This document shows, one piece after another, positions 6,323 to 48,946 of a stretch of DNA of 64,000 nucleotides (position 1 is its first letter; every line of letters starts with the position of its first letter). The notes under the pieces are model-generated. The model saw only the letters and a program-made list of their open reading frames with translations. It was not told the origin of the DNA and did not search any database. The DNA is taken from positions 139,162 to 203,161 of the forward strand of contig DAHVZI010000002.1 in NCBI GenBank assembly GCA_027330985.1, in the 5' to 3' direction. The stretch is from Candidatus Uhrbacteria bacterium. GTDB lineage: Bacteria; Patescibacteriota; Patescibacteriia; 2-12-FULL-60-25. The position numbers were made by a program, and so were the translations under genes.

Positions 6323-7003
6323 ATGGGCCGGGAAATGTCTTGGTCGGCACTTTCAACGCAGGAAGGGAAAGCTATGAGTACCATCAAAGGCTTGGTCAAC
6401 CTCCCGCACGGTGGGATGTACGCGACGACCGAGGCGGTTCTGCATGAACTCTTCAGGACGATCGGCGACATGGGCTATGTCGCGAAGCCCAGGCAGACCG
6501 ACGGGCATGATCCGCTCCATCCCGAGTGGGTGATCGAGCCAGGAGAGGGATCTTCAGGCAGGCGCTCGAAATATGTGCACGAGGCTTGGCATTGGGCTCC
6601 GCTCGAGCCTGACCCCAAGCTGCACGAGATCATGCTGACGTCGATAGGGATGCCCTATGACTGCGGGATGTATCTGCAGGATGATACCCCGGGTTTCCAC
6701 GAAATCCATCTTACGCGCCTGCGTTTGTTCGTCGCCGGACTCACGAAGCTCGACATCGCGGCGTGGGATGCGATGGTCGCACGGACGCCGAAGTCGGGTC
6801 CGGAGTTCATCCGCGGCATGGCGGCGTTCTGCCATCCGGACGCGGTCGTGACCGACGTACCGAACGAGGGCAACCTCTTCGTAGCGCTCGGACGCGCGCT
6901 GTCGGGCAGGAAGCCGTCGCGACGCGAGATGGAGGCGGCCGGTAATGCCTGGAGACGGCGCGACCGCGGTCCGGCTCTGCGTAAGCTCGTCGATGACCGC
7001 TGA
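6323..7003 (+). CDS. hypothetical protein (GC-rich island)
   Basis: ORF of 226 aa in a visibly GC-rich stretch. An alternative start is at 6374 (MSTIKG). An opposite-strand ORF 6554..7042 is shorter and probably spurious. Confidence 0.45.
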   Translation: MGREMSWSALSTQEGKAMSTIKGLVNLPHGGMYATTEAVLHELFRTIGDMGYVAKPRQTDGHDPLHPEWVIEPGEGSSGRRSKYVHEAWHWAPLEPDPKLHEIMLTSIGMPYDCGMYLQDDTPGFHEIHLTRLRLFVAGLTKLDIAAWDAMVARTPKSGPEFIRGMAAFCHPDAVVTDVPNEGNLFVALGRALSGRKPSRREMEAAGNAWRRRDRGPALRKLVDDR

Positions 7004-7071
7004 AGAAGTCCGAATCTGCTTGAGGCTTGGGAGAAATCCCAAGCCTCTTCTCTTTATGCTAAGCTATCGGC

Positions 7072-8058
7072 ATGCCAGCACAAAAAATCAGTTTGCCGCA
7101 GGACGAGGGAATTCAGAAGGATCCGATCGAATGGTGGTATTGGAGTGGTCATGCCAAAGGTATGGACGGTAATACCTATTCCTTCATGTTGGCCTTGTTC
7201 AAGGTGCGACCGTTGCCCTACCGAAAAGTCCCCGCGGTCTGGTTCGTGCATTCTTTGGTGTCATGCATCGATACGGGAGAGTTCGAGCCGCATATCGAAT
7301 TCTTCCTGAAAGGATTGGATCGGGGCAGCTTCAGCGGCAAGCAATTCAAGGCGAGCGTCAAGGAAAGGCTGAAGGTCGGTAAAAAAGGCGAGGGCAACTA
7401 CCATATCCAGACGCCGCGCATGGAGTTCGATCTGCACGCATTGAAACCGGTGATGTTGGTGGGTGGGACGGGAAACGTGGATCTGAAAAGCTCAACCACG
7501 ACTTATTATTCTTGGCCGCGGATGTCGGCTAAAGGCAGGTTACGGTTGAAGGGAAGCGTCCCGTGGGTAGAAGCCGAGGGCATGGTCTGGATGGACCATC
7601 AATGGAGCCCGATTTCGTTGCACGGCGAACACGTGTGGCGTTGGTTCTGTTTCCAGCTGGACGATGGGACCGACGCGATGTGTTTCGAATATGGACGCAA
7701 GAAGCGCGCAGCCATGGTGACCTTATCCGATGGCCACGGCGGCACGACCTTCAGCCACAAGGTGGATATCATACCTTTGGGCGAGAGCTGGATCAGCCCC
7801 ACGACAGGGGCGGCCTATCCTTTGGAATGGAAGATCACTGCGCCGGAGTTGGATTTCGAAGTGACATGCCGAGCTCGGGTAAAAGAACAGGAGATGCTGT
7901 TCGGTCTGATGAACTATTGGGAGGGGCCTTTGGCCGCTGAAGCTATGCTTAACGGTAAAAAAACCGAAGGCTCGGGTTTCATGGAACTGGTCGGGTTTCC
8001 GAGGCGTCGATCATTGCCTGCGGTAGCCATGGAAGGTTTGAAGAGATTGTTCAAGTGA
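7072..8058 (+). CDS. AttH/CrtC-like (hydroxyneurosporene synthase family, lipocalin-like) protein
   Basis: The IEWWYWSGH motif is characteristic of the CrtC/AttH N-terminal domain. 328 aa. Confidence 0.5.
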   Translation: MPAQKISLPQDEGIQKDPIEWWYWSGHAKGMDGNTYSFMLALFKVRPLPYRKVPAVWFVHSLVSCIDTGEFEPHIEFFLKGLDRGSFSGKQFKASVKERLKVGKKGEGNYHIQTPRMEFDLHALKPVMLVGGTGNVDLKSSTTTYYSWPRMSAKGRLRLKGSVPWVEAEGMVWMDHQWSPISLHGEHVWRWFCFQLDDGTDAMCFEYGRKKRAAMVTLSDGHGGTTFSHKVDIIPLGESWISPTTGAAYPLEWKITAPELDFEVTCRARVKEQEMLFGLMNYWEGPLAAEAMLNGKKTEGSGFMELVGFPRRRSLPAVAMEGLKRLFK

Positions 8059-8070
8059 TCGCAGACGTCT

Positions 8071-8902: not shown

Positions 8903-8933
8903 TTTTTTAGGGTTTTTCAGGTTAAATATCCGC

Positions 8934-13291: not shown

Positions 13292-14791
13292 TTAGGGGGT
13301 GTAACAGACTTGGCAGGCGGTCACGTCGTACGTGTTCACGCCCACGGAGGTAGGAGCGGTCGAGCAGGCAAGACGCGCAGCGTTTCGGCTGTGCGCATTT
13401 CCCTTGTCGACGTATCTTGCCGGGTCCTCGTTGCCCAAGTAGTAGTTGAGCAACGAGGCGGTCACTGGCACGCACGTCTCGACGCCCGGGGTTGCAGTTG
13501 CGGTTGCGACGGTGGGAGTGGTCGCGGTGGGGGTCGGCTGGGACGAAGCGTGGACGCCCTCGGCGAGCTTGAATGCGCCGAGGATGAGCCCGAGCACGAT
13601 GACCACGCCGATCACCGTGAATACGACTGCCGTGAAGCGCCTGTTGCCGACGGGTTTCACGCCCAAGTTGGCGAGCTCGGCGTCGAGTTCGAGCAGCGCT
13701 GCTTTGTGCTCGGCTTCCAGTTGAGCGCGTTCCGTTCCCTCGACGGTGGCGCATGCCGCAGAGTACGCAGCAATGAGACGTAGGCGTTCGCCGCGGAGCT
13801 TGGCGGCGCGTTTGTTGCGCAGGTCTTGCTCGATCTTCGCGACTTCGGCCTTGTCCTCGGCTTCCGCCTTCTTGCGGTTCGCCTCGGCCTGGTCGAATAG
13901 GGAACGGTCGGCAGCCTCTTTCAGCTGCCTTTGACGTTCCTCCTGTTTGGCGAGGCGTGCGGCTTCGGCGTCAGCGGCAGCCTTGGCTTTCGCTGCGTCC
14001 GCGGCCTCTTTGGCCTTGGCGGCGTCAGCGGCAGCCTTGGCTGCTTCGGCCAACTTCGTGTCGGAGGCAGGTCTGGTCGCATCACCGAACCCTCCAGCCG
14101 CAGCTTCGCCGACCTTCATGATGATCTCGGTCGGTGTGGTGCCGCGCCGGCTCACTGTGGAGCCGCTGGTCGTGGCGGGCGCTGGTTTGGCGCTCGCGCT
14201 TGCCTTGGCGGGTTCCACCTTCTTGGGTGGATCCGGAGCCTTGGCGACGAGAACGGGTGCGGGCGTCCTGGGCGCTTCGACCGTCCGTGCGGCCGGGTCG
14301 ACCTTGGGAGGTGCTACGGCGGGCTTCGACAGCTCGTCGACAATTCCCTCAGCGACCTTCAAGGCAGCATCAATGGAATCGCCGCGCCTGCGGGCAGCGG
14401 CGTAAGCCATGAAGCAGATCACGGCCAGGACACAAACACCCTGGTCTGCCGTGAGCTTTCCTGCCTCGACGGCAGGCTTCACCTTGCGCGCCTTCTCGAG
14501 CGCTGCGGTGATCCACTGCGTCGGGGTCGGGGTGTCGTTCCCTGCATTGTTGCGTGCCGCTGCCACTACGGCTTTGGCGAAATCGGCGGGGACGATGATG
14601 CCGAAGTCGAGTTTCTTCGTCTCGCCAGAAGGCTCGAGCTCGATGAACTCCTTGAATTGAGCCTCATCGAACGCGATGTCGAAGCCGATTTCCGGAGTCG
14701 GAGCCGGCTCTACGGGCGGGGCCGTGATGACGGCTGGCGGAGCGGGTGGAGGCGCGACGATCCCTGCAGGACCTTTGCGGGGCATAACCAT
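13292..14791 (-). CDS. low-complexity Ala/Lys/Glu-rich membrane protein (GC-rich island)
   Basis: ORF of 499 aa. Pro/Ala-rich N-terminus, AKAAADAAKAKEAADA repeats, coiled-coil segment, one TM helix (FTAVVFTVIGVVIVLGLILGAF), Cys-containing C-terminal domain. Plus-strand ORFs here are Gly/Arg-rich and judged spurious. Confidence 0.5.
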   Translation of the reverse strand: MVMPRKGPAGIVAPPPAPPAVITAPPVEPAPTPEIGFDIAFDEAQFKEFIELEPSGETKKLDFGIIVPADFAKAVVAAARNNAGNDTPTPTQWITAALEKARKVKPAVEAGKLTADQGVCVLAVICFMAYAAARRRGDSIDAALKVAEGIVDELSKPAVAPPKVDPAARTVEAPRTPAPVLVAKAPDPPKKVEPAKASASAKPAPATTSGSTVSRRGTTPTEIIMKVGEAAAGGFGDATRPASDTKLAEAAKAAADAAKAKEAADAAKAKAAADAEAARLAKQEERQRQLKEAADRSLFDQAEANRKKAEAEDKAEVAKIEQDLRNKRAAKLRGERLRLIAAYSAACATVEGTERAQLEAEHKAALLELDAELANLGVKPVGNRRFTAVVFTVIGVVIVLGLILGAFKLAEGVHASSQPTPTATTPTVATATATPGVETCVPVTASLLNYYLGNEDPARYVDKGNAHSRNAARLACSTAPTSVGVNTYDVTACQVCYTP

Positions 14792-19444: not shown

Positions 19445-20308
19445 ATGCAGACATCGATCCGTAGTACCATCGTAGCAGTGGGCATCGCGGCTCTGGGTTT
19501 TGCCGCCATCGATTGCGGCGGCAAGGTCGAGACGAGTCCCGAGACGGACGTAACCGCCAGTAGCCAGCAGTCGCTGGCCTTCGACGAATACGGAAAGGAT
19601 GCGGTCAGCGGTACCTTCACCGACGGCGACAACAAGCTCATCTTCATCAGCAAGTGGAGCGAAGGCGACAAGAGCGTGGACTTCCTGGCGGACGGCCAGC
19701 CCGTGGGCAGCGTAGGTTACGCGGCATCGAGCGGGCTCTTCACGGCGGACGCGGAGCTTACGCCGATCGGCAAACAGCTGATCCTCGGGCTCATCTCGAA
19801 CCTGAAGACGCTCGACGAGAACGGGATCGCTGCGACCTTCGGTGACGACGTCAGCCAGACCGCGATGGGTCTGCTCTTCAACTATGCCTCGCACTACGCT
19901 TCGGCGCCTCTCGCGCGGGCGGTGCACTACGAGAAGGTTTGGCCGATCGACGGCGCGATGACGGTCAAGTCATACGGCGGCGAGGGCATCAAGTACCTCT
20001 GGGAGTGCAGCCGCAAGTCGTCGTACAAGTACTCGACGGCGGAGTGGACCGATTCTCGCGGCTATGAATCCGCGTACACCACGTGCGGTACCTGGGCTCC
20101 GGAGTGCGAAGGCCGTTGCGGCGCGGGTTGCCCGTGCAACTCGTGGTATTGCGTGAACCGCTATTACACGAAGGACTGCTTCGACCACGACGTGTGCCTG
20201 GACAACAATCCGGGCGACGGACACAACGATCCTTTCGCGCCGAATTGCGGTGACGAGTGGGGCGACGCTTCCGACGACGTGCTGTTCGGATCCTCCAGCG
20301 GTTGGTGA
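19445..20308 (+). CDS. secreted Cys-rich hypothetical protein (GC-rich island)
   Basis: ATG at 19445 gives a signal-peptide-like N-terminus (MQTSIRSTIVAVGIAALGFAAIDCGG). The C-terminal Cys-rich region has a C-x-x-H-D-x-C motif. The ORF track start at 19355 is TTG. Confidence 0.5.
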   Translation: MQTSIRSTIVAVGIAALGFAAIDCGGKVETSPETDVTASSQQSLAFDEYGKDAVSGTFTDGDNKLIFISKWSEGDKSVDFLADGQPVGSVGYAASSGLFTADAELTPIGKQLILGLISNLKTLDENGIAATFGDDVSQTAMGLLFNYASHYASAPLARAVHYEKVWPIDGAMTVKSYGGEGIKYLWECSRKSSYKYSTAEWTDSRGYESAYTTCGTWAPECEGRCGAGCPCNSWYCVNRYYTKDCFDHDVCLDNNPGDGHNDPFAPNCGDEWGDASDDVLFGSSSGW

Positions 20309-22881: not shown

Positions 22882-24186
22882 ATGCTCTGTTATCTCCCGG
22901 AGGAAGTGACGGTCAGGAATTCCAAGGGTAGTCTGACGGCAGTACTTGGCAGGTTGCCTTGGGGCGGGGACCATATGGTCCTGAAAGACGGTGCGCTCGA
23001 GCAGCCGCCGGGCAAGAACGGCGAGGTGCTCGTACCCGCCGGATCATTCTGGCGCAGCAACGCAGAGTTGAGGTCGCGGACCAAGGGCAAGTCCACGCAT
23101 GCGCAACTCGTCGATCTGTATGAGTTGGAGCTTGCAGGCCGGCATACGTTGCTCTTCGAGAAGTTCGACAAGGATGAGATGCGGCAGCGGATCGCGGCGC
23201 AACGGGATTTCTCGATCTTCATGCTGAACTTCCCGGCGACGACGGAGGACGAGCGCCGCCTGCTTTTCGAGACGCATTACGGTCTGGCGGGTACGCTCGC
23301 CAAGGTCCGCGACAGCGACAAGATCGCAGCGCGCGAGATGATGCATGCAGCGTTCAGCCTCCTCGATTCGAGCGGCCGGCCGAACCCGGTAGCGAAGGCC
23401 ATGCAGAGCGGCGGCGCCATCGGGCGCTTCAAGACGCGCAGCGCACGGGCGACGGCCATCGCTGATTTCGAGAAGTGGCGCACCGAAAAGGTCGTCGAGG
23501 TGATCGACGACCATCTGTATCTGTATGGGCGCCTGTGGATGGCGCTCAGCATGGCACAGAGGTCAGGAGTGGCTGACGTCGCGGAGAGGATTTTCACGGA
23601 AGACACCTACTTGAGGATCGGCCCGGACAACTGGCTGAGCGACGTACGAGGTCAGGATGGGTTGCGCGCAGCCGCGCAGGTCATCCGATCCTTCATCGAT
23701 CCGCTCTCGACCATCCAGGTGTTGCCGTTCCGCAAGAACACAGCGCATGTGCTGAAGGAGCTCAGGCTCGCGCAGCAACTCTGCGAGCAGGGCAAAAGGC
23801 TGGAGCTCGTCTCCCTGTTGCGCAAGACGCGTCGCGGCTTGCGCTGGGTCTTCGCCCTGCATGCACTACAGCACGACGTGAACATGCCTCTCTCATTGCT
23901 CTTGGACGCCCTGCGCAAGCTCTACTCCAAGAATCTCGTGGAGGATGGTACCGGGCGGCGCAGGGTCGTGATCCCTCGTTCTGCGGCGCCGGATCACTTC
24001 GCCGTGATCGAGAGCGCTCTCGAGTCGGTCAGGACCAGGATCGAAGAAAAGTGCAACGAGGACGACCTCGACCACAAGATCAAGAAGCAGGTCGAGATCT
24101 ACCTCGCCACAGCGCAGGTGGCCCTCGCCGAGGACAACTGGACAGTGGCCCAGAAGAACATAGTCAAAGCGGCCAGGCTCATGTAG
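22882..24186 (+). CDS. hypothetical all-helical protein (GC-rich island)
   Basis: ORF of 434 aa from ATG 22882 (TTG at 22876 in the track). No recognised domain. Strongly GC-rich codons. Confidence 0.5.
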   Translation: MLCYLPEEVTVRNSKGSLTAVLGRLPWGGDHMVLKDGALEQPPGKNGEVLVPAGSFWRSNAELRSRTKGKSTHAQLVDLYELELAGRHTLLFEKFDKDEMRQRIAAQRDFSIFMLNFPATTEDERRLLFETHYGLAGTLAKVRDSDKIAAREMMHAAFSLLDSSGRPNPVAKAMQSGGAIGRFKTRSARATAIADFEKWRTEKVVEVIDDHLYLYGRLWMALSMAQRSGVADVAERIFTEDTYLRIGPDNWLSDVRGQDGLRAAAQVIRSFIDPLSTIQVLPFRKNTAHVLKELRLAQQLCEQGKRLELVSLLRKTRRGLRWVFALHALQHDVNMPLSLLLDALRKLYSKNLVEDGTGRRRVVIPRSAAPDHFAVIESALESVRTRIEEKCNEDDLDHKIKKQVEIYLATAQVALAEDNWTVAQKNIVKAARLM

Positions 24187-25260: not shown

Positions 25261-25480
25261 ATGTGAATAGGATAGCAGGAAACGGGGGGAGGGGCGAGGG
25301 GAGAAGGGAGGTATTTTTGAGATTAAGCTGCGGTATTTATAGGGGAGCGGAATATTTCGGCACAACGTTTGGCAGCTAGCCGAAGTGCCCGCGCCATATA
25401 CGTGTCCGCCGAAGCGTTAGCGGAGGCAATATACAAAAAAGCGGGCATTTTGGCTAGGTGCCGTTATAGCCAGTACGCAT

Positions 25481-26227: not shown

Positions 26228-26365
26228 GTCGTTGCGTATTGGCTATAACTCGTTTTTATGTGCAATGTTTAGCTGGTAATACTGATTATGCGTATGTTAT
26301 GTGAGATTTTGGCGATGGTTAATGGCAGCCACCGCGATTGTGCTGAACTGTCTTGGGTAAAGATA

Positions 26366-27112: not shown

Positions 27113-27306
27113 AAAATGTTTAGTTTATCCTTAGCTTAGTCGAATCATGTGGTGTGGTAAAGATGGGTTTTGTTGCGGGTCGAGGACAAGATCCCGGGTC
27201 AGTGCCCGGGATGACAGAGGAGGGTCGGGAGACTGCGGGTGTGGGTCTGGATTCCCGTTTTCGTGGGAACAACGAAGGAAAAATTAGGATTTTGGGGGTC
27301 TTCTCA

Positions 27307-27428: not shown

Positions 27429-28652
27429 ATGCATATCAACATCCGTAGTTTCGTGGTCGCAATCGTTGGTCTCATGTTCCTCGGAATCGCGTCGAGTGCC
27501 TCGGCTGACAACGCCAAGTGGCGCGTGGCTACGGGTAGCGCGAGATCGAGCGTCCGGTGCGACGAGATCGGCGATGTCGTGATCGGCGGGGAAGATGGGA
27601 AAACTCCCATCTACTCGTGCCGGAATGGCGAGGATTGGCAGGCGGTCAAGGGATCGCAGGCCTACACTCCGCGCTGCAAGAGCATGGATCGCATCTGGTG
27701 GTCGTCCGAGAACCGCTCGGTGATGTACACCTGTACAAGCGGTGCAATCTTTATCGGCAACCAGCCGCAACCGGCTGATGGTCCGTGGAAGATGGATTAC
27801 GTGGATGGCGAGGGCTACGTGTGTGGCTATGTGCAGGCTGAGCCTGGTTTTATCAGGTTCACGAACCACTACGCAAACGAGTGCCCTTGGTCATTGATCA
27901 ACCAGAATCATCGCGACGCTGGGCGCTATCAAACCGTGAAGCCGCGTCGCTTCCCGGACGGCGTAGTCGAGCTGAGCTTTGAGTGGACGCCTCCTGCCAC
28001 GGCTGTACCTGCGGAAAGCGACGATCCAGACGTGGAGGTGATTCCGCGTAGCGAGAGCAGCCGTTCCTACGGTAGAGGCTTGGGCTTGGCAGACCTTGGC
28101 ATCAGTCGTCGTTCGGCACCTCCTCGCATTAGGATGTTCGGCAGCGACAGATCTCAACCTATTCCAGTTGGGATGCCGAGCGCGGATCCGACGTCGATTC
28201 CAGGCGAACAAGACGCTGTGGTCTCATGCGGCAATCAGGTTGTCACTCACTATCTACTGGCGAAGGATGCTCCAGTGTGGATCGATAGTCAGACCGGCAG
28301 CGTCCGCGTATGTACCGGCAAGACCTTCGGCAAGAGCTGGCAGAGCACTTGGGATCTAGCTGTTTATGACGACGGGACGTCGAGCTACTTCGCCGGGTCG
28401 GCTGACGGCAATTGGCGTCTGGTCCACGGCTCGGTCGAGGCGACTGCGTTCGGCAATATCCGTTGGCATGAGTGGGTAGAGGTGCGCGGTGCGGCCAAGC
28501 GCGCCTATCTCGCAACAGACAAGGCGGGTGAGACCGCTGATGCGCTCTACCTCATGCTCGATAACCAGCAGCTCGCGCGCGTCACGAAACCGACCAGGCT
28601 GTGGCGTTTCATCCCTGCGGCGGGGAACTTCGTCTACGCCGTGCAGGAGTGA
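27429..28652 (+). CDS. secreted hypothetical protein (GC-rich island)
   Basis: Signal peptide (MHINIRSFVVAIVGLMFLGIASSASA), multiple Cys, 407 aa. No recognised domain. Confidence 0.55.
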   Translation: MHINIRSFVVAIVGLMFLGIASSASADNAKWRVATGSARSSVRCDEIGDVVIGGEDGKTPIYSCRNGEDWQAVKGSQAYTPRCKSMDRIWWSSENRSVMYTCTSGAIFIGNQPQPADGPWKMDYVDGEGYVCGYVQAEPGFIRFTNHYANECPWSLINQNHRDAGRYQTVKPRRFPDGVVELSFEWTPPATAVPAESDDPDVEVIPRSESSRSYGRGLGLADLGISRRSAPPRIRMFGSDRSQPIPVGMPSADPTSIPGEQDAVVSCGNQVVTHYLLAKDAPVWIDSQTGSVRVCTGKTFGKSWQSTWDLAVYDDGTSSYFAGSADGNWRLVHGSVEATAFGNIRWHEWVEVRGAAKRAYLATDKAGETADALYLMLDNQQLARVTKPTRLWRFIPAAGNFVYAVQE

Positions 28653-28771
28653 GTGGTTCCTCACCGCTCCTCGAGACCGTCCGGAGACTTCATAAGAAGC
28701 TTCTTCTCCGGGCGGTCTTTTCAGTTCACTAAAGTACGCGTCATCCTTTAATCGATTAAACGCCGAGGGCG

Positions 28772-29446: not shown

Positions 29447-29524
29447 ATTTCTGCATGTTATGTGAACGTAGGGCGTGAGTAAAGGCGGGTTCCGTTATTC
29501 GCGACGCTGGGTTAACATGGCGCC

Positions 29525-31751: not shown

Positions 31752-32789
31752 ATGCGCAAACTATCGTTCAAGCGGTTCGCCGGGATGATGAGTGAAGAAG
31801 TGGTGCAGGTCCTGCGTCTGGAGCAGGAGATGTTTCATCAAAGCTACTCCACTGATTTCATGAAGTGGTTCAAGCAGCACGGCGCAAAGCTCTCGACGGA
31901 GTGGCTGCGCTACTGCGCGGACAACGACGTCAAGAACTGCAACCGGTTCCATGTCTTGATGGCTTACGCCGAGAGGACAGGGGACCGCGAGAAGCTGTTC
32001 CGCTACCTCGTGCGCACGAATTGGCTCTCGGCTCTGCGCAAGCATTTCTCGGAACGGCTCACTCCGCAGCTGCTCCGCAGCATCGCTGAACGCAACTGGG
32101 CACAGTTGCGCAAGGAGCCGAACGGTGTGAAGTACTCCATAGATGCCTACGAGGCGTACCAGCTGCTGGGCGACGAAGAGGCTGCCGCGGCCGTTCGGGC
32201 ATTCGTCGTCAACCGTGGTCAATGTTCATTCTTCGGACTGCTGCCCAGCCTGCATCTCGACGAGGCAGAACGCGAGATTCTTGTCAGCGTCGTGCTGAAG
32301 AGCGGGAGACACGAGGGCTTGGTCGAGCGCTGCGTGAAGGATCACCACATGGTGCGGTTCTATCGGGCTTACCTCGAAGCCAAGGCGTCCACTTACGGAT
32401 ATCGGGTGTGGCTCGAGGAGGGCCCTGAACTGGGGATCACACCCACGGTCAAGCACCTCTTGGCTTTGGCGCAAAAACAGCACGACATAGACGACGAGAT
32501 CAAGATCTATCGGGTGCTGGCACAGCGCAACCCCAAGTACCAAACAAAGGTTCGGGCATTGTGGCTGGAGAAACGGGAGCACTACCTTGGTCGTCTCGAT
32601 GTCGAGCGGGCGATGGAAGCGGCAACCGAAGCCGGTCAGCCGCTGACGCCGGAGGAACTGCTCGCAGCCAGCCATACTTCCAACGACGAAGAAGCCCAGA
32701 AGGCGCTCAACCTCGCGGCCAAGCTCATCGTCGCGCAACTCGGCGACAAGCCGAGCAAACGCGCGCGTAAGCTCACGGCAGCAGCGTGA
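31752..32789 (+). CDS. hypothetical helical protein, paralog A (GC-rich cassette)
   Basis: ATG at 31752 with GGAGG SD. Paralogous to 33307-34365 (KHFSERLTPQLLRSIAERNW vs KYFPEQVTPKLLRSFARHWL; AGQPLTPEEL vs CGQPLTWNEL; Lys/Ala-rich C-terminal tails). Confidence 0.6.
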   Translation: MRKLSFKRFAGMMSEEVVQVLRLEQEMFHQSYSTDFMKWFKQHGAKLSTEWLRYCADNDVKNCNRFHVLMAYAERTGDREKLFRYLVRTNWLSALRKHFSERLTPQLLRSIAERNWAQLRKEPNGVKYSIDAYEAYQLLGDEEAAAAVRAFVVNRGQCSFFGLLPSLHLDEAEREILVSVVLKSGRHEGLVERCVKDHHMVRFYRAYLEAKASTYGYRVWLEEGPELGITPTVKHLLALAQKQHDIDDEIKIYRVLAQRNPKYQTKVRALWLEKREHYLGRLDVERAMEAATEAGQPLTPEELLAASHTSNDEEAQKALNLAAKLIVAQLGDKPSKRARKLTAAA

Positions 32790-32845: not shown

Positions 32846-32914
32846 GAGGTTTTTTGACTTTCCGTATAACATGAAATAGGCTTGAGTCGTTCCTTTCAGT
32901 CGAAGGAGGATGTT

Positions 32915-33286
32915 ATGCCGATTACATGCGCTGAGTGTCAGACGGAGCTCTCCATGGGTTTCAACTTTTTCGTGGCCCACCAGGTCATGTTGACCGGGGA
33001 AGTCGCGGAGCTGCCTGACCCTGAAGACAAGACGCGGACAGCGAACGCTTTCGTCTGTCCTGGTTGTCTGGCCAAGGTGCCGGATCACGCCAAGCACGTC
33101 GAGGCGAAGCGCGCCAGACAGCCGCATTGGCACTCGATCATCGCGATTGCGCCTGTCGATACGGCCAAATGCGACTATTCGGCGTTCGGCAAGGCGCCGG
33201 TCACCGGAGAATACACGTTCGTCAAACTCGGCGTGTTCAAGCGACGGCTGCCCAAAGCCATGCTGGAGATCACGAAGAACTTCTAG
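32915..33286 (+). CDS. zinc-ribbon-containing small protein
   Basis: ATG at 32915 with AAGGAGGA SD. CAEC...CPGC zinc ribbon, then an ~80-aa C-terminal domain. No recognised family. Confidence 0.55.
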   Translation: MPITCAECQTELSMGFNFFVAHQVMLTGEVAELPDPEDKTRTANAFVCPGCLAKVPDHAKHVEAKRARQPHWHSIIAIAPVDTAKCDYSAFGKAPVTGEYTFVKLGVFKRRLPKAMLEITKNF

Positions 33287-33306
33287 AGGCGAGGGAGGAT
33301 AAGACG

Positions 33307-34365
33307 ATGGAAACTGAAGTGGGTCGGTTCAGCGGGATGGATCAGAGCCAGATCAAGCAGATGCTTGTGCTGATGAACGGAGTGGTGTTCGGCCACTTCA
33401 AGGATTACGACGAATTCGTAGCGTTCATCGAGCGAGGGGGGCTGACGTTCTTGCCGCGAGACATCCTGGCCTGTGCCCGGCAACGCGAGAAAACCTTCGT
33501 CACGACCTACGCCTACCGGTACTACGGTGCGCAGACCGGGGACATGGGGCTGTTTTTCGACTACCTGGTGCGGCATCATCACCTCGAGACGATCAAGAAG
33601 TATTTTCCGGAGCAAGTGACGCCCAAACTTCTGCGCTCTTTCGCGCGTCATTGGCTTGCGCGGGCGAAAGAGGAGCACAATAAGTGGCCGCTCTATACCG
33701 CCTACGAAGTCTTGTGCGAGGTGCACGACAAGCCGGCGATGGCTCGTGTCCGCAAGCTGGCGATCGAGTTTGGGGATGTCAAGTTCTTTTCGCACTATCG
33801 GATCGTTCTGCGGCAGGAGGAAGGAGAAGCACTTGTCCGGTCGTGTTTCCGTGTGGGCATACCTGATCCTGACGATCTGGCCATATTCCTGATGGTGAAC
33901 GGCTTGAAGCGGCACTACCGCCTTTTCCTGAACGAGGTCTCACGGAAACAAGGTTTCGGTCAGTGCATGCACTTTAGCAGGAAACTGCATGTCAGGCCGA
34001 GTAGCAGACTCCTAGCCGCTATGCTGGACGACTCTTTGACGAAGAGGGACGGCTACGACGCCTTCGGGATCTGCGAAGAACTCCATCGACGGAACCCGCG
34101 CAAGTGGCAAGGCAAGCTGCGCGAGTTGGCGGCCGAGGATAGAGGCAAATGGCTCAAGCTTGGAGAGCCGGAGGAAGCGTACAAGATGGCCGTAATCTGC
34201 GGCCAACCGCTGACCTGGAACGAGCTCGTGGACATCTACTCCAGGTTCGAAAAGGACGACCGGCCGGTCATGCGTGAGAAGGCGGAGCAGGCGCTCGATA
34301 TGGCGGCTGCGCTCATCGCCCGTCAGACAGGAGCTCCTGGGCCCAAGAAAGCGAAGGCGGCGTGA
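33307..34365 (+). CDS. hypothetical helical protein, paralog B (GC-rich cassette)
   Basis: ATG at 33307 with GGGAGG SD. Paralogous to 31752-32789. The upstream part of track ORF 33064.. overlaps the zinc-ribbon gene and is discarded. Confidence 0.6.
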   Translation: METEVGRFSGMDQSQIKQMLVLMNGVVFGHFKDYDEFVAFIERGGLTFLPRDILACARQREKTFVTTYAYRYYGAQTGDMGLFFDYLVRHHHLETIKKYFPEQVTPKLLRSFARHWLARAKEEHNKWPLYTAYEVLCEVHDKPAMARVRKLAIEFGDVKFFSHYRIVLRQEEGEALVRSCFRVGIPDPDDLAIFLMVNGLKRHYRLFLNEVSRKQGFGQCMHFSRKLHVRPSSRLLAAMLDDSLTKRDGYDAFGICEELHRRNPRKWQGKLRELAAEDRGKWLKLGEPEEAYKMAVICGQPLTWNELVDIYSRFEKDDRPVMREKAEQALDMAAALIARQTGAPGPKKAKAA

Positions 34366-42475: not shown

Positions 42476-42817
42476 ATGTATCTACTTTTAAGATGGCTCA
42501 TCAGCGCGGGATCGGTCATGGCAGCGGCATATCTGGTGCCAGGCGTGCACGTGGCTAATCTGTGGAGCGCTTTGATCGCGGCGCTCGTCATAGGTCTCAT
42601 CAACGCATTGATCAGGCCTTTGATACTTCTGCTCACCTTGCCGGTAAATATCCTGACCCTCGGACTTTTCACCTTGGTCATCAACGCTTTGATGTTCTGG
42701 TTGGCTTCATCCATCGCAAAGGGTTTTGACGTCTCCAGTTTCAGTGCAGCGTTCTGGGGCGCTTTGGTCTATTGGTTGGTTTCATGGATCGCTAACGGCT
42801 TGTTGGGTAAGGAATGA
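42476..42817 (+). CDS. DUF360/phage-holin-4_2-like small membrane protein
   Basis: 113 aa with four TM segments (AAYLVPGVHV...LIAALVIGLINALIRPLILLLTLP...). Confidence 0.55.
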   Translation: MYLLLRWLISAGSVMAAAYLVPGVHVANLWSALIAALVIGLINALIRPLILLLTLPVNILTLGLFTLVINALMFWLASSIAKGFDVSSFSAAFWGALVYWLVSWIANGLLGKE

Positions 42818-43332
42818 GCGTCACAGCATCGAAAAAGAGTCTTATCTGGTCGATTGTCGTCTCGACGGCGTTTTGTCTAACCTCGGTGTGGTTCGTCTTC
42901 GGTCCTTTGATAACCGCCTATCAGCACAAATCGACATGGACCAGGGCGGCTGCGACTATCGAGGACGTCGGTTATTCGAGGTATTACGGCATCACAAACA
43001 GGACGCAGCTGATACATCATCTGATCCCTCAATATCAAGTCAGACTAAGATATGTCTATGCCTTTGGAGGCAAGACCTATGTGGGATATGCGCATAAGTC
43101 ATTGATGATATCGGAAGCCCGAGCTGAAAGGTTCGTCGGCAACTTTGAGGGCAAGGGCATCGAGATAGCGGTGGACCCGCAGAATCCAATGCATAGCGAA
43201 ATCCTGGGGATAGTTGATTTTGAAGGTTATCTACCGCTGCTCGTCCTCAGCTTGATCCTGTTATCTTTGAGTCTGTATAACTATTCATTAGCCAAGAAGA
43301 ATCTATGGCGAAACAAAGCGAAAAACCAATAG
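42814..43332 (+). CDS. DUF3592 domain membrane protein (paralog 1)
   Basis: TM helix, beta-rich domain, C-terminal TM helix. This architecture is shared with 44011 and 44907. Confidence 0.5.
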   Translation: MSVTASKKSLIWSIVVSTAFCLTSVWFVFGPLITAYQHKSTWTRAAATIEDVGYSRYYGITNRTQLIHHLIPQYQVRLRYVYAFGGKTYVGYAHKSLMISEARAERFVGNFEGKGIEIAVDPQNPMHSEILGIVDFEGYLPLLVLSLILLSLSLYNYSLAKKNLWRNKAKNQ

Positions 43333-44010: not shown

Positions 44011-44466
44011 ATGAATTGGCAACGCATCATAATGGGGATAATAGGCGCGGCTTTGTTGGTAGGCGCGGGATATTTTACCTATCACCAATATCAATTCCAG
44101 AAGAGCGCCCTTGTCACCAAAGGCCGTGTGACGGCACAGGCAGAACACAGCGGCAGCAAGGGAAGGACGATGTACGCGCCGAAGGTCAGCTTCAAGGCGG
44201 CAGACGGCAACACATATGAATTCACCTCCAAACTGTCCTCATCATCACCGAGCTATGGGGTAGGCGAGACGGTGGAGGTGCAGTATGACCCGGCCGATCC
44301 CAAGAACGCGGAAGTGAAAAGTTTCTTGGCTGCCTGGCTCGTGTCGATCGTTTTCCTCATCATGGGCGGATTCATGTTCTTCTTCAGCGTGTTTGGAGGC
44401 AAATTCTATCAGAAGAAAAACATCGGAACACCGAAAGCGATGACGGATAATAATCAGGCGCAGTAA
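44011..44466 (+). CDS. DUF3592 domain membrane protein (paralog 2)
   Basis: TM helix, beta domain (GETVEVQYDPADPKNAEV), TM helix. Confidence 0.55.
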   Translation: MNWQRIIMGIIGAALLVGAGYFTYHQYQFQKSALVTKGRVTAQAEHSGSKGRTMYAPKVSFKAADGNTYEFTSKLSSSSPSYGVGETVEVQYDPADPKNAEVKSFLAAWLVSIVFLIMGGFMFFFSVFGGKFYQKKNIGTPKAMTDNNQAQ

Positions 44467-44906: not shown

Positions 44907-45350
44907 ATGAACGAAAAACATATTCCTTGGATAGTAGGTGCGACGGGGATCGTCTCTTTACTCGTAGGGATGTTTTTGACGCTCCAGACTAGCCACGGTC
45001 TGAAGGGCATGGAAGTTGGGAGGGGGAAGGTGATCTCCAATGTGCTGATAGGCGGAGGGAAGAGCCGTGGCCAGAGGATCGATGTGCAATTTGAGTCAAA
45101 AGAAGGGAAGGTCTACAGAATTACCGACACTGTGCCGTCATTCGTCGAAATCCCCGATATAGGCCAGCAGGTCGAAGTTCTGTATCAACCCGGCCAGCCG
45201 CAGCAAGCACAGGTCAAGAATACCCTGATCCAATGGTTTTATCCGATATTCTTCAGCGGAATGGGATTATTCCTGCTCGCCTCTTCAGCTCTGTTTTTTG
45301 TGTTGTTCAGCAAGCTTTTTCCGCCTAAGAAGGCTCTTGACATAGGTTGA
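44907..45350 (+). CDS. DUF3592 domain membrane protein (paralog 3)
   Basis: TM helix, beta domain (QQVEVLYQPGQPQQAQV), TM helix. Confidence 0.5.
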   Translation: MNEKHIPWIVGATGIVSLLVGMFLTLQTSHGLKGMEVGRGKVISNVLIGGGKSRGQRIDVQFESKEGKVYRITDTVPSFVEIPDIGQQVEVLYQPGQPQQAQVKNTLIQWFYPIFFSGMGLFLLASSALFFVLFSKLFPPKKALDIG

Positions 45351-45572: not shown

Positions 45573-46259
45573 ATGCCAAAAACAAGACAACAGAAAGAAG
45601 CGGAGATCAGCGACCTGGTACAAGAGTTCAAAGGTGCCAAATCGGTCGTGTTCGCCGACTATCAGGGTTTGACCGTGGCTAAGGCAGACGAGTTGCGTAA
45701 CAAAGCGCGCGAATCGGGTGTCCGCTATCTGGTCGCCAAGAAAACCCTCTTGTCCAAGGCGGCCAAACAGGCAGGTTTCGAGTTGGACACTTCCAAACTG
45801 ACCGGCATGTTGGGCGCCGCTTTCGGCAAAGAGGATGAAGTCGCTCCGGCCAAGGTGCTCGGTGACATGACCAAGGATACTCCGATCAAACTGGTCGGTG
45901 GCATCTTCGAAGGCCAGGTCGTCGGTGCCGATAAGGCCATCGCACTGTCCAAGCTGCCCTCCAAGCAGCAATTGCTCGGTCAGTTGGTCGGTACCATGTA
46001 TGCTCCGGTCTCGGCTTTTGTCCGCGCTTTGAACGCAATCCGTGAATCGATGGAGAAGGGTTCTCCGGCAGCTGCCGAGGCAACAGCTCCTGAAGAGAAG
46101 AAGGAAGAGCCAAAGGCGGAAGAAAAGTCCGTTGAAGAACCTAAGACCGAAGAAAAGCCAGCCGAGCCAGAAGCCACACCGGAAGTCTCCGGTGATGCGC
46201 CTGCCGCTCCGGCAGAGACGGCAGAAGCTCCCGCAGCGGATGTACCGCCTGCGGCGTAA
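45573..46259 (+). CDS. rplJ: 50S ribosomal protein L10 with low-complexity C-terminal extension
   Basis: L10 core (SVVFADYQGLTVAKADELR). About 60 aa of extra E/K/P/A-rich tail (EEKKEEPKAEEKSVEEPKTEEKPAEPE...). Confidence 0.85.
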   Translation: MPKTRQQKEAEISDLVQEFKGAKSVVFADYQGLTVAKADELRNKARESGVRYLVAKKTLLSKAAKQAGFELDTSKLTGMLGAAFGKEDEVAPAKVLGDMTKDTPIKLVGGIFEGQVVGADKAIALSKLPSKQQLLGQLVGTMYAPVSAFVRALNAIRESMEKGSPAAAEATAPEEKKEEPKAEEKSVEEPKTEEKPAEPEATPEVSGDAPAAPAETAEAPAADVPPAA

Positions 46260-46289
46260 GATAATTCACAGGAAGATAAACCAAATATT

Positions 46290-46688
46290 ATGTCTGACGA
46301 AATGAAGAACGTCGAAGTGCCGGAGAAATTCAAGGCCTTCGTCGAATCAATCGAGAAACTCTCCGTCCTCGACTTGGCCGAATTGGTCAAGGTCCTGGAA
46401 GATAAGTTCGGCGTATCCGCTGCCGCTCCGGTCATGATGGCCGCAGCAGGCGCCGGTGCAGCAGCAGCTGAAGAGAAGACCTCATTCGATGTCGAATTGG
46501 CGGAAGCCGGCGGCAACAAGATCGGTGTCATCAAGGTCGTGCGCGAGGTGACCGGTTTGGGTCTCAAAGAGGCCAAGGACTTGGTCGATGGCGCGCCTAA
46601 GATGATCAAGGAAGGTGCCGATAAGGCCACAGCTGAAGAGATCAAGAAGAAGGTCGAAGAGGCTGGCGGTAAGGTCAACCTCAAATAA
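46290..46688 (+). CDS. rplL: 50S ribosomal protein L7/L12
   Basis: N-terminal dimerisation helix, Ala-rich hinge, C-terminal domain ([25 protein letters not shown]). Confidence 0.9.
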
Positions 46689-46706
46689 CCATAGGTTTTA
46701 GAAGAA

Positions 46707-46737
46707 AAGAGGCGTCCTGCGGGGCGTCTTTTTTCGT
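46707..46737 (+). terminator. rho-independent terminator after rplL
   Basis: GGCGUCC-UGCG-GGGCGUC stem with G-U pairs, followed by T6. Confidence 0.5.
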
Positions 46738-46849
46738 ATCCGGCATCTTGACCTGTGGCTGTAAAAATGGTGGTGTAATGGGGGTCTTTGGTATGCTTAA
46801 GACGGTACATTCCATCACCTAGAAACTCTGGCGCCAGACAGGAGGTAGC

Positions 46850-48946
46850 ATGCTGGTCCTAAAGGTCGTTTTCAGGTCGCTGCTTCGCGGCGCATGGCGC
46901 GCCAGACGGAGTGGCCTGATGGCGCTCATCGGCGTCATCACCTTCATCGCTTTCGCGGTCGTGCCGCGAAGCGCATCCGCCGCTAATAGCGGTTACTGTT
47001 TCCGCGTGCTCAGCGAGACGGATCAGGCCTATCGGGTAATCACCGAAGCGCATTCGGGCTGTGATATCTACAAGATGATCAGGCTTTACCCTCAGAAGGA
47101 TGGGCAAGGCAACGTGTTGCCGGATCAGGTCCAGCTGCGGAGCATCCATGCCGCTAACCTGATCGACGAGGGGAACGGTAAGTTCTCAGACGGTAGCATC
47201 AAACGTAGGTGTACGAAAGACGGACGGCCGAGCCCTGATAGCAACGCTGAAGAGCTCGCGATCTGCAAACACCTGGTGTTCTTCTATGACCTGCCCAACG
47301 TGTCGTATGTCGTGCCGAAAGCGCGCGTGTACACGCCGGCTGAGAATAGGGTGAGGCAAGCGGCGGAAGAAGCCGAGAAAGCCAAGCGCGATGCCGCTGC
47401 AGCCAAGGCGGCGGAAGAAGCGCATCAGGAGTCGGAAGCTTTCAAGCGTGCCGCCAAGGCGGAAGACGAGCTTAAGCTCGAGCGCAAGAGGTCGGCTGGC
47501 CTGCAAAGCGAGCTGAACGACATCGCGGACAAAGCCTGGCGCGTCGCGACCTTCCCTGAATTGGCGGGTGCATTCATCTGCGCTTTGGCCTATGCATTGC
47601 TGGCTTCGATGCTGGCGGCCCATTATCGCTTCAAGCTGCGGCCATTGACGGTCGATGGTTATGGCTATCCTGATCCGCTCGCTGCCGTGCAGGAGCTGAA
47701 CATGAAGCTTTTGGCACTGCGTGATGAAGTCGCACGGTGGCGTAGGGCCGATTCAGATCGGAGAAGCCTTGAGGCAGCTGAGCAGAAGAAGGGAAGCCAA
47801 GAGCTCCAGGATCTCCAGCAGCGAGCGGAAGCGGCTGAAGCGGAAGCTCTCGCCCTCAAGAAAGAGAACGAGGGTATAAAGAGCAATCTGGAAGCCCTGC
47901 GGAAAGCGCGCGCGAGCGAATCGGGCGGTACGCCTGCGACTGTGAAGCTTCTGGAAGAACGTCTCTCTACCGCGACCATGCAGTACAACGAGCTGGATGG
48001 GCTGCATAAAGGGCTCCAGGAAACGCGGCGTCGACAGGCTGTAGAGATCCAGCGGCTCCAGCAGGAGAACGATGAGGTGCGTGCATGTATGGCGCGCGTC
48101 GAGACCGAGAAACAGGGTCTGTCCGATCGTCTGAAGGCAATCCAAGACGAGCGATTGGCGGAGAATAGTGCGAGTTGGCACCTCGCATCTGTCGCTGACC
48201 CTGAAGAGGCAGTGACGCAGGTCAGGACGCCAAGCAGGGACTCGGTGACGCCGGATTCAGTTGCTGACGCGATCGGGTTCGCCAAACAGGAAGCGCGACC
48301 GCAAGAACCGGAAGAGCTCTTCGCCGGCCTGGCACAGGAGCTGACGGATGCGCGCAGAGAACGCGATCTGTTCCGTGGTGGCTTGCTCAGGATCTCCGGC
48401 CTGCTTTCTTGGGTAGAGGATCTTGAAGCCGAATCGTTCGATGTGCTGCGCACGAAGACTGACAAGATCATCGTAGCGGTGACGGACGCTTGCCGTAATT
48501 GGGCATCGACCGGGCATCCGACGACGGCCAGCGAAGTGCAGGTGGAGAGCAATATCCCCACGGTCAGCGCTTCAGAGGTCGTACGCATCGCGAAGATGTC
48601 CGATATGCTGCAGGAGAGAGCGGTGGATATCCAGGCTTTCCGCGGCATCATGGGTGACGTTTCGACGGCATCAGTCGGGCAATGCCTCAAGGCCTGCATC
48701 CATGAGTGGGCCATCAGGTCGGAGGGCGAACCTTTGGCCTTTGTCCTCGAAGAGCCTCATGAGGCATTCGATCTGAACAGACTCCTGCTATCCCACTTGG
48801 GCTTTGGCCCCAGGTTTTCTTCCACGGTGACATCAAGGTTTGCGGAAGCGGTGGATCGAGTCCATCTCGCGTGTGCTCCGGAATTCAGCCGTAGAGCCGT
48901 GAGTGGATCGGTACCTCCGTCGGCCGTACCTCAAGCAGCCGGATAG
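46850..48946 (+). CDS. large hypothetical protein with signal/TM segments and long coiled-coil (GC-rich island)
   Basis: ORF of 698 aa. N-terminal hydrophobic segment, Cys-containing domain, mid TM helix (LAGAFICALAYALLASMLAA), extended coiled-coil (EAEALALKKENEGIKSNLEALRKAR...). The antisense ORF 47665..48714 is judged spurious. Confidence 0.5.
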   Translation: MLVLKVVFRSLLRGAWRARRSGLMALIGVITFIAFAVVPRSASAANSGYCFRVLSETDQAYRVITEAHSGCDIYKMIRLYPQKDGQGNVLPDQVQLRSIHAANLIDEGNGKFSDGSIKRRCTKDGRPSPDSNAEELAICKHLVFFYDLPNVSYVVPKARVYTPAENRVRQAAEEAEKAKRDAAAAKAAEEAHQESEAFKRAAKAEDELKLERKRSAGLQSELNDIADKAWRVATFPELAGAFICALAYALLASMLAAHYRFKLRPLTVDGYGYPDPLAAVQELNMKLLALRDEVARWRRADSDRRSLEAAEQKKGSQELQDLQQRAEAAEAEALALKKENEGIKSNLEALRKARASESGGTPATVKLLEERLSTATMQYNELDGLHKGLQETRRRQAVEIQRLQQENDEVRACMARVETEKQGLSDRLKAIQDERLAENSASWHLASVADPEEAVTQVRTPSRDSVTPDSVADAIGFAKQEARPQEPEELFAGLAQELTDARRERDLFRGGLLRISGLLSWVEDLEAESFDVLRTKTDKIIVAVTDACRNWASTGHPTTASEVQVESNIPTVSASEVVRIAKMSDMLQERAVDIQAFRGIMGDVSTASVGQCLKACIHEWAIRSEGEPLAFVLEEPHEAFDLNRLLLSHLGFGPRFSSTVTSRFAEAVDRVHLACAPEFSRRAVSGSVPPSAVPQAAG

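Follow-up and report, generated by a model that had tools for sequence, protein, structure and literature searches.

This report concerns a 64,000-nucleotide stretch (hereafter the window, overall GC 0.541) of a metagenome-assembled genome of Candidatus Uhrbacteria (Patescibacteria), in which seven segments stand out by a high GC content; we call them islands 1 to 7 (I1 to I7), island 6 consisting of three genes (I6a, I6s and I6b). Atypical GC is routinely read as horizontal transfer, and GC-rich orphan genes of episymbiotic Patescibacteria invite the story of a high-GC host as donor; that story is wrong here. We consider it rather probable, though by no means assured, that the islands are native, lineage-restricted and rapidly diverging genes of Uhrbacteria, subject to a gene-bound pressure on their synonymous sites, and not foreign DNA. 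Most of them (I2, I4, I1 and I6) have kept fixed positions under vertical inheritance, each gene family has high GC as a lasting trait and not as a leftover from a donor, and there is a heritable, gene-bounded pressure to G/C at synonymous sites in this class of lineage-specific genes.

Contigs assembled from run SRR13189623 (L001 and L002; L-numbers denote the contigs or loci compared) match the window at 100% identity, and JAJYXM010000016.1 (bacterium isolate FK3.bin42, L003) does so at 98.3-98.7%. L003, L107 (DAIBWE010000001) and L105 (a contig from SRR13201255) stand for a single further strain, which we call strain B; all strain comparisons rest on these two strain types. Relatives were collected by a scan with GpmI, keeping one genome per species, which gave 80 loci with a GC of 0.30 to 0.64; those with informative titles are Candidatus Uhrbacteria or other taxa of the Patescibacteria group. 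The sister species is L041 (isolate Ess09-17, GpmI 93%). Homologues of I5, I3 and I6a were searched for among 5.8 billion proteins, and those of I7 among 1.84 billion representatives.

The GC-rich stretches coincide with genes

The seven stretches had been picked out by eye in a sequence-only reading of the window, and a windowed GC profile bears them all out. Their pooled GC is 0.606 vs 0.529 in the rest of the window (Mann-Whitney p 4e-18 on 200-bp windows), and in 20,000 random placements of equally long segments the observed GC was never reached (z 5.7). Gene by gene, the island genes range from 0.578 to 0.648, while the backbone has a mean of 0.530 (sd 0.023) and a maximum of 0.575. The housekeeping genes that had been named as not GC-rich, i.e. 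gpmI (two copies), metG, mreB (58494-59498) and the glycosyltransferases, indeed have a normal composition. The same reading had missed one further gene with the codon signature of the islands, encoding a PD-(D/E)XK nuclease-family protein, and had seen two genes in island 6 where there are three. The genes are the following:

Island 1, 6323..7003, plus strand: 226 aa (209 aa if the start is at 6374), no known domain, signal peptide or transmembrane (TM) segment; GC 0.626
Island 2, 13292..14791, minus strand: 499 aa, membrane-anchored by a TM segment at 389-407; GC 0.648
Island 3, 19445..20308, plus strand: 287 aa, signal-peptide-like N-terminus, 11 Cys, DUF8213; GC 0.623, GC at third codon positions (GC3) 0.82
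Island 4, 22882..24186, plus strand: 434 aa, no TM or signal segment, no known domain; GC 0.615, GC3 0.81
Island 5, 27429..28652, plus strand: 407 aa, signal-peptide-like N-terminus, 8 Cys, two beta-rich domains; GC 0.596
Island 6a, 31752..32789, plus strand: 345 aa, no TM or signal segment, paralogue of 6b (29% identity); GC 0.594
Island 6s, 32882..33286, plus strand: small ORF of 123-134 aa with 5 Cys, between 6a and 6b; GC 0.578
Island 6b, 33304..34365, plus strand: 353 aa, paralogue of 6a; GC 0.581
Island 7, 46850..48946, plus strand: 698 aa, N-terminal signal/TM segment; GC 0.593
PD-(D/E)XK nuclease-family gene, 59545..60324, plus strand: Pfam PF12705 (E 7e-15); GC 0.597, GC3 0.78

The borders of the islands are ORF borders, each stretch coinciding with one to three genes. 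Along the length of an island gene GC3 stays level, to fall at the gene edges and in the adjacent gene ends, and the spacers flanking islands are not enriched in GC (0.48 vs 0.51 in other spacers). A GC-rich run at 13967, which had been quoted as an example, lies antisense to the Ala-rich part of island 2.

Every island protein had been described as devoid of a recognisable domain. The nine proteins had no family match in the copy of Pfam that was searched, nor in PHROGs, NCBIfam or PADLOC, apart from weak matches of coiled-coil type for I7; a newer Pfam model, PF26641 (DUF8213), nevertheless covers island 3 (19445-20308). Across the window, GC-rich status goes with the absence of a Pfam domain (Fisher p 6e-5), but the association is not absolute, about nine further genes without a Pfam match having ordinary or low GC and the PD-(D/E)XK gene combining a domain with a high GC3. 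Signal peptides and TM helices, said to be frequent, are seen by a simple hydrophobicity scan in four of the nine proteins: I2, I3, I5 and I7 have signal-peptide-like or TM-like segments together with 7-11 Cys, and I1, I4 and I6a/s/b have no such segment.

Two components of the GC excess

The excess has two parts, one due to amino-acid composition (dominant in I7, I5 and I2), the other a shift to G/C-ending codons. Island proteins contain more Ala, Arg, Gly and Pro, and less Ile, Lys, Asn, Phe and Tyr, than backbone proteins (Ala 12.5% vs 9.1%). The second part was measured as a z score comparing the observed GC3 of a gene with the expectation from its amino-acid content under backbone codon usage. 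This score is +3.7 in I1, +4.6 in I2, +7.1 in I3, +7.6 in I4, +5.0 in I6a and +4.5 in I6b, and it is weak in I5 (+2.2) and I7 (+1.6); the PD-(D/E)XK gene, at +5.2, shares the signature. Codon position 3 accordingly accounts for very different shares of the GC excess: 65-81% in I3, I4, I6a, I6s, I6b and the PD-(D/E)XK gene, 40% in I1, 29% in I2 (where about 70% lies at codon positions 1 and 2), 28% in I5 and 16% in I7.

One could imagine that protein composition is the whole matter, i.e. that disordered or coiled-coil sequences rich in Ala, Arg, Gly and Pro force the use of GC-rich codons while synonymous sites are left untouched. The extra Ala and the low position-3 shares of I7, I5 and I2 would fit such a scenario, as would the low z scores of I7 and I5, but it accounts neither for the six genes in which most of the excess sits at position 3, nor for the scores of I1-I4 and I6a/b, which persist after conditioning on amino acids, nor for the fact that every two-fold amino acid is individually shifted to its G/C-ending codon. 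It is refuted as a general explanation, which we regard as very improbable, and stands for island 7 only.

The shift is strongest at two-fold degenerate sites. GAC rises from 0.41 in the backbone to 0.61 in the islands, TAC from 0.34 to 0.66, AAC from 0.57 to 0.77, GAG from 0.47 to 0.65 and AAG from 0.57 to 0.76; the favoured codons are GAC, AAC, TAC, CAC, GAG, AAG and CAG, to which are added CTC (in place of TTG) and ATC, ATA being avoided. At four-fold sites GC increases only from 0.68 to 0.74. The result is that two-fold and four-fold GC are about equal in the island genes, whereas they are 0.52 and 0.68, respectively, in the backbone. Two-fold-site GC exceeds that of the backbone by 0.19 in I6s and by 0.22 in the PD-(D/E)XK gene.

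The island genes probably belong to the lineage

Since the source is a metagenome-assembled genome, one might suspect errors of assembly or binning that brought in pieces of other organisms, or non-coding DNA of high GC in which the ORFs are spurious; chance long ORFs do occur in GC-rich DNA, for instance antisense to I2 and I7. The same arrangement is however repeated in independent assemblies (Logan SRR13189623 for the window; JAJYXM, DAIBWE and Logan SRR13201255 for strain B) and also in other species. Moreover, the dN/dS ratios of the islands, 0.17-0.32 (I4 0.17, I1 0.32) vs 0.03-0.18 in the backbone, together with conserved motifs, are those of coding sequences under purifying selection: these are real genes, faster-evolving than their neighbours. 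An artefact is refuted for I1-I6, whereas for I7 homologues alone are known, and overall we give this explanation next to no credence.

A recent acquisition from outside the lineage, with a high-GC organism such as an actinobacterial host as the donor, had been put forward in the sequence-only reading, the GC excess being in that case the un-ameliorated composition of the donor. What speaks for it is the atypical composition with its sharp single-gene bounds, the lack of known domains, and a patchy distribution: I5 and I6a are missing in strain B, a 98.5%-identical strain, and I3 is missing in the sister species. The pattern of absence at the same site is mixed, though, I1, I2 and I4 being present in both strain B and the sister species.

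The homologues do not point outside the lineage. Among the 5.8 billion proteins there are 6 homologues of I5, 13 of I3 and 2 of I6a; the three that carry an organism name are all from Patescibacteria, and each context that was fetched is Patescibacteria-like. The best-hit taxonomy that had been suggested as a check leads, wherever organism or context could be examined, to Patescibacteria only. No relatives of the I5 or I3 families were found in viral contigs. Scans for tRNA genes and Rfam families found none in the 64-kb window, PHROGs and PADLOC gave no phage or defence-system match for the island proteins, and the I5 indel junction, the sole junction inspected, shows a terminator-like hairpin and no clear flanking repeats or target duplication.

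Orthologues occupy the same position in 7-10 species for I2 and I4, in the sister species for I1 and in L090 for I6. Those of I2, 450-730 aa long, lie between RNHCP and gpmI in L041, L004, L046, L008, L006 and L005. Those of I4 directly follow yceG (mltG) in the mapped loci; I4 relatives occur in 10 species at 24-74% identity, and their identity ranks follow those of GpmI (rho 0.92). I1, which is 99% identical at the amino-acid level in strain B, is found upstream of AttH in L041 (55% identity over the aligned part at the locus edge, GC 0.642) and was not found in relatives more distant than this sister species. The three genes of island 6 are present in L090 in a different order, upstream of the same block running from the metK-like gene to xseA, and the paralogues of L090 pair one-to-one with specific paralogues of the window: the I6a orthologue (43% identity, GC3 0.74) has the same surroundings, upstream of the metK-like gene, and I6s is 50% identical to a 125-aa gene (GC3 0.80). 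I3 is inserted between fpg and nth and, at this site, is confined to the species of the window; it is identical in strain B and absent from this site in L041 and in L004. Universal conservation in the lineage, which the sequence-only reading had named as an observation that would refute its view, is what islands 2 and 4 show.

The time scale is also informative. Synonymous sites are saturated in the comparison of the window with L041, where dS is above 1 for almost all genes (I4 0.95, PAP2 0.78). As the orthologues are still GC-richer than their own neighbours, their GC is not the un-ameliorated composition of a donor. Finally, the presence of an I6a orthologue in L090 makes the absence in strain B more simply a loss. 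We accordingly reject import from a high-GC donor in the case of I1, I2, I4 and I6, and find it unsupported in that of I3 and I5; for the islands as a whole we regard it as extremely unlikely.

Persistence of the codon shift

With the exception of two distant I4 orthologues, the orthologues are GC-richer than their own neighbours in all cases examined, including in genomes of 0.475-0.49 GC. I2 orthologues are GC-richer than their own loci in six of six species. The I6 homologues of L090 have a GC3 of 0.74-0.80 vs 0.52-0.70 for most of their neighbours, and the I3 homologues of L087 and L089 have values of 0.83 and 0.885 vs about 0.63-0.70, in loci of GC 0.53 and 0.56. Two I5 homologues reach GC 0.61 and 0.59 (GC3 0.75 and 0.72) in loci of GC 0.488 and 0.475. 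For I4, two-fold-site GC is raised in seven of eight orthologues, by 0.12 to 0.32 over their own backbone (mean +0.176, mean z +4.4).

Other genes of the region behave differently. FecR, which is as divergent as I4 (36-40% identity in the more distant of the species compared), has a two-fold-site shift of -0.004 (n=14) and YceG one of -0.019 (n=48), while PAP2, Nth, Fpg, MetG, GpmI and UvrD are all near 0. The idea that relaxed constraint makes two-fold sites behave like four-fold sites is ruled out by FecR, which evolves equally fast and shows no shift. Nor are the island codons the optimal codons of highly expressed genes: in GroEL/ES and L10/L12, NAC codons are raised slightly and NAG codons are not. 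The islands do not carry the codon usage of GC-rich Uhrbacteria either. In 74 sampled backbones, two-fold minus four-fold GC ranges from -0.37 to -0.02, and none of those with four-fold GC >0.6 is above -0.05; in the islands this difference is mostly about -0.05 to +0.07 (I1 -0.11, I6s -0.09, I7 -0.13). No high-GC backbone among the 74 thus has two-fold GC close to four-fold GC.

The signature extends beyond the window. In a survey of long ORFs in 79 species, 24-27% of the narrowly distributed ORFs have a two-fold-site shift above +0.12, vs 1-2% of the conserved ones (Mann-Whitney p 9e-10), and four-fold sites show no mean shift. The overall GC of the orphans deviates both ways in this survey, 26% being high and 14% low. 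The proposal of a distinct class of fast-evolving genes under a different regime, which was the second suggestion of the earlier reading, therefore holds as a description, by the dN/dS ratios, the family-specific codon shift and this survey; the regime, called mutational in that reading, may be of this or another kind.

Strain variation, recombination and exchange

The comparison of the islands across strains, which was suggested at the outset, gives a divided picture: strain B lacks I5 and I6a and has I6b replaced, and it possesses I1, I2, I3, I4 and I6s. I5 lies in a 2.3-kb strain-specific block (about 27216-29507) that also contains a DUF218 gene (28772-29446, minus strand, GC 0.489) and is missing from strain B. 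In place of I6a, strain B has about 14 bp, and loss in strain B is the likelier event, judging from the gene content of L090, because this locus carries orthologues of both paralogues. I6s is retained at 97% nucleotide identity. For I6b, a segment of 1042 bp (33299-34341 of the window) is replaced by another allele of equal length, which is 39% identical to that of the window and 62% identical to the L090 copy, and is also G/C-rich at two-fold sites. In I2, a 300-bp segment encoding an Ala/Lys/Glu-rich repeat (13600-13899) shows 31% strain divergence and is very different in length and sequence among species. I1 and I4 diverge between strains like their neighbours; I2, I5 and I6 are the variable ones.

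From 6400 to 46100 the comparison with strain B is a mosaic of 0% and 2-5% blocks throughout. Blocks of 0% divergence lie at 17.8-21.1 kb (3.3 kb, around I3), 37.9-40.3 kb and 41.5-43.3 kb, the fpg-I3-nth block being identical between strains while its flanks differ by 1-5%, and spikes of 9% and 12% occur at 37300-37599 and 41200-41499, respectively. This indicates frequent homologous recombination in the population, pervasive rather than island-specific.

Such data raise the possibility that the islands are exchanged repeatedly, like cassettes, within a pool shared by Uhrbacteria or Patescibacteria, residing too briefly in each host to ameliorate, their GC reflecting the pool or its GC-rich members (up to 0.64). 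The replacement of I6b is gene-bounded and brings in an allele closer to L090. I3 homologues (48-56% identity in L087 and L089) sit in three unrelated contexts in all; I5 is strain-specific and lies elsewhere than in L083 and L085, its family having a GC of about 0.60 irrespective of that of the host; and recombination tracts are pervasive between strains, including the identical block around I3. On the other side, the identities of I4 are in species order and the positions of I2 and I4 are kept in 7-10 species, the I5 homologues of L083 and L085 share one slot (groEL-mamF-X-prfA, a site differing from that in the window) at 52% identity, where most of the conserved flanking genes have 75-87%, which fits divergence in place, and no mobility genes were found. 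A signature in which two-fold GC approaches four-fold GC occurs in 0 of 74 backbones, so that averaging over hosts cannot yield it. We take cassette exchange within the pool to be real for I6b and plausible for I3 and I5; as the explanation of the composition it is unlikely, if the least so of the alternatives to native genes under a gene-bound pressure.

Recombination could act in another way, through GC-biased gene conversion, hypervariable genes recombining more and biased mismatch repair favouring G/C. In bacteria, recombining genes do have a higher GC3 through non-optimal G/C-ending codons (PMC4450053); in the window, too, the codons enriched in the islands differ from those of highly expressed genes, and every two-fold amino acid takes part in the shift. 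Several islands are moreover places where change between strains is concentrated. Yet the excess ends at gene borders, with no spill-over into adjacent gene ends and spacers; I4 and I1 have ordinary strain divergence, and recombination tracts are found genome-wide. The swap of a whole divergent allele would in addition place the heteroduplex in the flanks and not in the gene body, and a rise of +0.10 to +0.25 in GC3 appears to us large for this process. We hold gene conversion to be distinctly unlikely as the main cause.

The clearly foreign or replaceable DNA of this region is AT-rich, the opposite of the islands. Two AT-rich genes, at 25481-26227 and 41582-42208, had gone unlisted in the earlier reading. 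The first occupies a replaceable slot between a DUF4349 gene and an SDR gene (window 25300-26370; L003 18709-20419; L107 3124-4431). In the window this slot contains a single gene of 248 aa (25481-26227, minus strand, GC 0.42, GC3 0.36) matching PHROG 19461, and in strain B two unrelated AT-rich genes, one of 266 aa (GC 0.34) and an ORF of 90-124 aa (GC 0.26); it looks like a small variable hotspot for foreign, possibly phage-related or defence-type genes. The second (41582-42208, plus strand, 208 aa, GC 0.44, GC3 z -6.6, no family match) separates xseA from xseB and shares 4 bp with the end of xseA; both strains have it, and in L090 xseA is directly followed by xseB.

What could maintain the composition

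A gene-bound pressure on synonymous sites would maintain the composition of the islands, and selection on codon choice would be its most likely form, amounting to a distinct codon-usage programme for this class of genes. Selection is our leading guess for the cause, and we rank it first because the effect ends where the genes end, is even along them and does not depend on how fast they evolve. Behind it we would place a reduced transcription-associated, AT-biased mutation in rarely expressed genes, which would be gene-bound as well, and the recombination-linked biased gene conversion discussed above. As to function, the island genes may be interaction or conflict genes, encoding surface proteins and possibly toxin- or immunity-type cassettes; we infer this surface or conflict role from the secretion signals and Cys content of the proteins, from paralogy, and from the replacement of alleles and other variation between strains.

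A bolder version would be that Uhrbacteria, and perhaps Patescibacteria, possess a class of genes with a G/C codon programme in two-fold boxes that is maintained by selection, their translation being coupled to the tRNA pool or to wobble modifications, or else that an undescribed gene-targeted GC-biasing process is at work. We find this doubtful and mention it as a speculation. If it were true, the codon programme would tie the translation of surface, conflict or interaction genes to, for example, host contact or nutrient supply.

Several observations weigh against the islands being simply native genes under a gene-bound pressure. I3 occurs in three contexts, I5 lies at a different site than in relatives, and the I6b of strain B is closer to the L090 copy; gene flow thus does take place within the Uhrbacteria pool and could have a part in the composition. 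In the I5 family, GC stays at about 0.60 in hosts of 0.475-0.54 GC, which a shared mobile pool predicts as well. I7, and largely also I5 as it is in the window, are explained by amino-acid composition and may perhaps be a separate phenomenon. The most distant I4 orthologues, which lie in higher-GC loci (L017 and L020), have little or no excess. Lastly, the survey of 79 species was made on simple longest-ORF calls, and some of its orphans may be spurious.

Individual islands and neighbouring genes

Structure prediction gave no functional match, and Pfam, PHROGs, NCBIfam and PADLOC scans detected no toxin, immunity or secretion-system domain in any island protein.

The N-terminal part of I2 is rich in Pro and Ala, and its coiled-coil-like middle in Ala, Glu and Lys; there follow a single strong TM segment and, at the C-terminus, a small Cys motif. 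Its orthologues have in common the disordered N-terminal part, the single TM segment and the C-terminal motif (C..VT..L..Y.G...P..F....C....YD[IV]..C.[IV]CY in the family), and most have the Ala/Glu/Lys-rich repeat.

For I3, precomputed matches to PF26641, a model not present in the copy of Pfam that was scanned directly, cover the window protein and 12 of its 13 homologues, and the invariant motif of DUF8213 is CEGRCGxGCP...DCxxHDxCL. The resemblance of this motif to the Ca-loop and His-Asp motifs of secreted phospholipase A2 (PLA2) led us to consider a PLA2-like protein, an idea that sequence, profile and fold tests do not support: no PLA2 family of Pfam scored, profiles of the whole DUF8213 family and of its C-terminal domain found nothing relevant among PDB sequences at E up to 10, and the AF2 model of the C-terminal domain has a pLDDT below 50. 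In L089 (2375-3937), the DUF8213 homologue adjoins a GC-rich gene with a Pfam match to Imm5_like (polymorphic-toxin immunity), a neighbour that the window does not have; this hints that DUF8213 proteins might be secreted toxins.

A profile of the I4 family likewise retrieved nothing relevant among PDB sequences. The six homologues of I5 are 48-53% identical to it, and the two beta-rich domains of its predicted structure have only a generic similarity to propeller blades.

Besides its N-terminal signal/TM segment, I7 has an N-terminal domain with Cys residues, a further hydrophobic segment and a long coiled-coil-like region rich in Ala, Glu and Arg. It has 34 matches among the representatives searched, two of them full-length relatives (32-35% identity) and about 25 others restricted to the N-terminal stretch. 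A metagenome scan for I7 found none, look-ups with RplL and with a 172-aa neighbour returned the same strain only, and a scan with XseA gave only short or distant contigs. I7 follows rplJ-rplL, the three genes spanning 45573-48946, where rpoB is the usual neighbour in bacteria. A little further on, a 707-aa protein (49559-51682, minus strand) has only sub-threshold beta-propeller matches; with a GC3 of 0.70 (z +3.3), its gene may be a weaker member of the same compositional class.

Elsewhere in the window, two copies of 2,3-bisphosphoglycerate-independent phosphoglycerate mutase (521 and 526 aa) overlap in tandem at 15030-18172, and the pair is adjacent in the mapped relatives too. The syntenic MetG is 74% vs 41-45% identical to that of the window in relatives that are equally close by GpmI (L008, L013, L010 and L009 against L046 and L005), which suggests two MetG types, or a replacement, within the group. 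The segment 42476-45350 holds a holin-like gene (Phage_holin_4_2, 42476-42817) and, after it, three paralogues with DUF3592, with an amino-acid kinase family gene among them:

DUF3592 paralogue, 42814-43332
DUF3592 paralogue, 44011-44466
DUF3592 paralogue, 44907-45350

Comparison with known systems

Our literature search returned nothing relevant on heterogeneity of GC or codon usage in Patescibacteria, nor any account of such a pattern in this group. The finding that a quarter of the narrowly distributed ORFs of 79 species have a two-fold-site shift to G/C points, in a lineage known for the most part through its sequences, to an unexplained force on synonymous sites, and it singles out a small group of genes as candidates for roles in interaction.

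Lawrence and Ochman reportedly proposed in 1997 the amelioration model, in which genomic islands are recognised by their atypical base composition. The islands of the window are like genomic islands in their sharply bounded atypical GC and codon usage, in consisting of accessory genes without known function, and in some presence/absence variation among strains. They are unlike them in occurring singly or as a group of three genes, with no integrase, tRNA gene or clear flanking repeats, in having homologues only within the lineage, and in being mostly syntenic; their atypical composition is kept past synonymous saturation, and the deviation is towards GC when the replaceable DNA nearby is AT-rich. 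Since native GC-rich genes can keep their composition in this way, composition-based island finders would mislabel this class of genes.

Hypervariable loci for surface proteins, polymorphic toxins and immunity-type cassettes exchange their contents by recombination in conserved flanks. The tandem paralogues I6a/I6b, the swap of a whole gene for a 39%-identical allele, the presence/absence variation and the secreted Cys-rich nature of some of the proteins recall such loci, which the window does not match in that no toxin, immunity or secretion-system domain was detected in its island proteins. A conserved GC-rich codon signature is not a known trait of hypervariable cassette loci.

In mycobacteria and yeast there are codon-biased sets of genes whose translation can be tuned by tRNA modification. 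The islands resemble them, by analogy only, in a preference within split two-fold boxes, which wobble-modified tRNAs decode, that is limited to a subset of genes and distinct from both average and highly expressed genes. They differ in that Leu, Ile and, weakly, four-fold sites shift as well, giving the look of a general G/C preference and not of one for particular codons.

In recombining bacterial core genes, the heterogeneity of GC3 has been attributed to GC-biased gene conversion (Lassalle et al. 2015, PMC4450053). Island genes are like the genes of that study in that GC3 varies through non-optimal G/C-ending codons, more so at synonymous sites, and is not due to translational selection. 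They depart from them in that the effect is confined to lineage-specific genes with sharp borders, the spacers not being raised, and is in our judgement apparently larger; moreover I4 and I1, with their ordinary strain divergence, are shifted as strongly as the hypervariable islands.

A further comparison is with the prokaryotic orphans, which in a survey of gut-microbiome species match on average the GC and GC3s of their genome, the candidates for a virus-related or de novo origin being AT-richer and short (Vakirlis and Kupczok 2024, PMC11293555). Like these ORFans, the island genes are restricted to a lineage and have no known domains; purifying selection on them is weaker and their evolution faster, and their codons are unlike those of conserved genes. 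Unlike them, they are long (226-698 aa, apart from a single gene of about 130 aa), exceed the backbone in GC by 5-12 points, and maintain this excess across species: these long, GC-rich, position-conserved and lineage-specific genes depart from the picture of orphans drawn from that survey.

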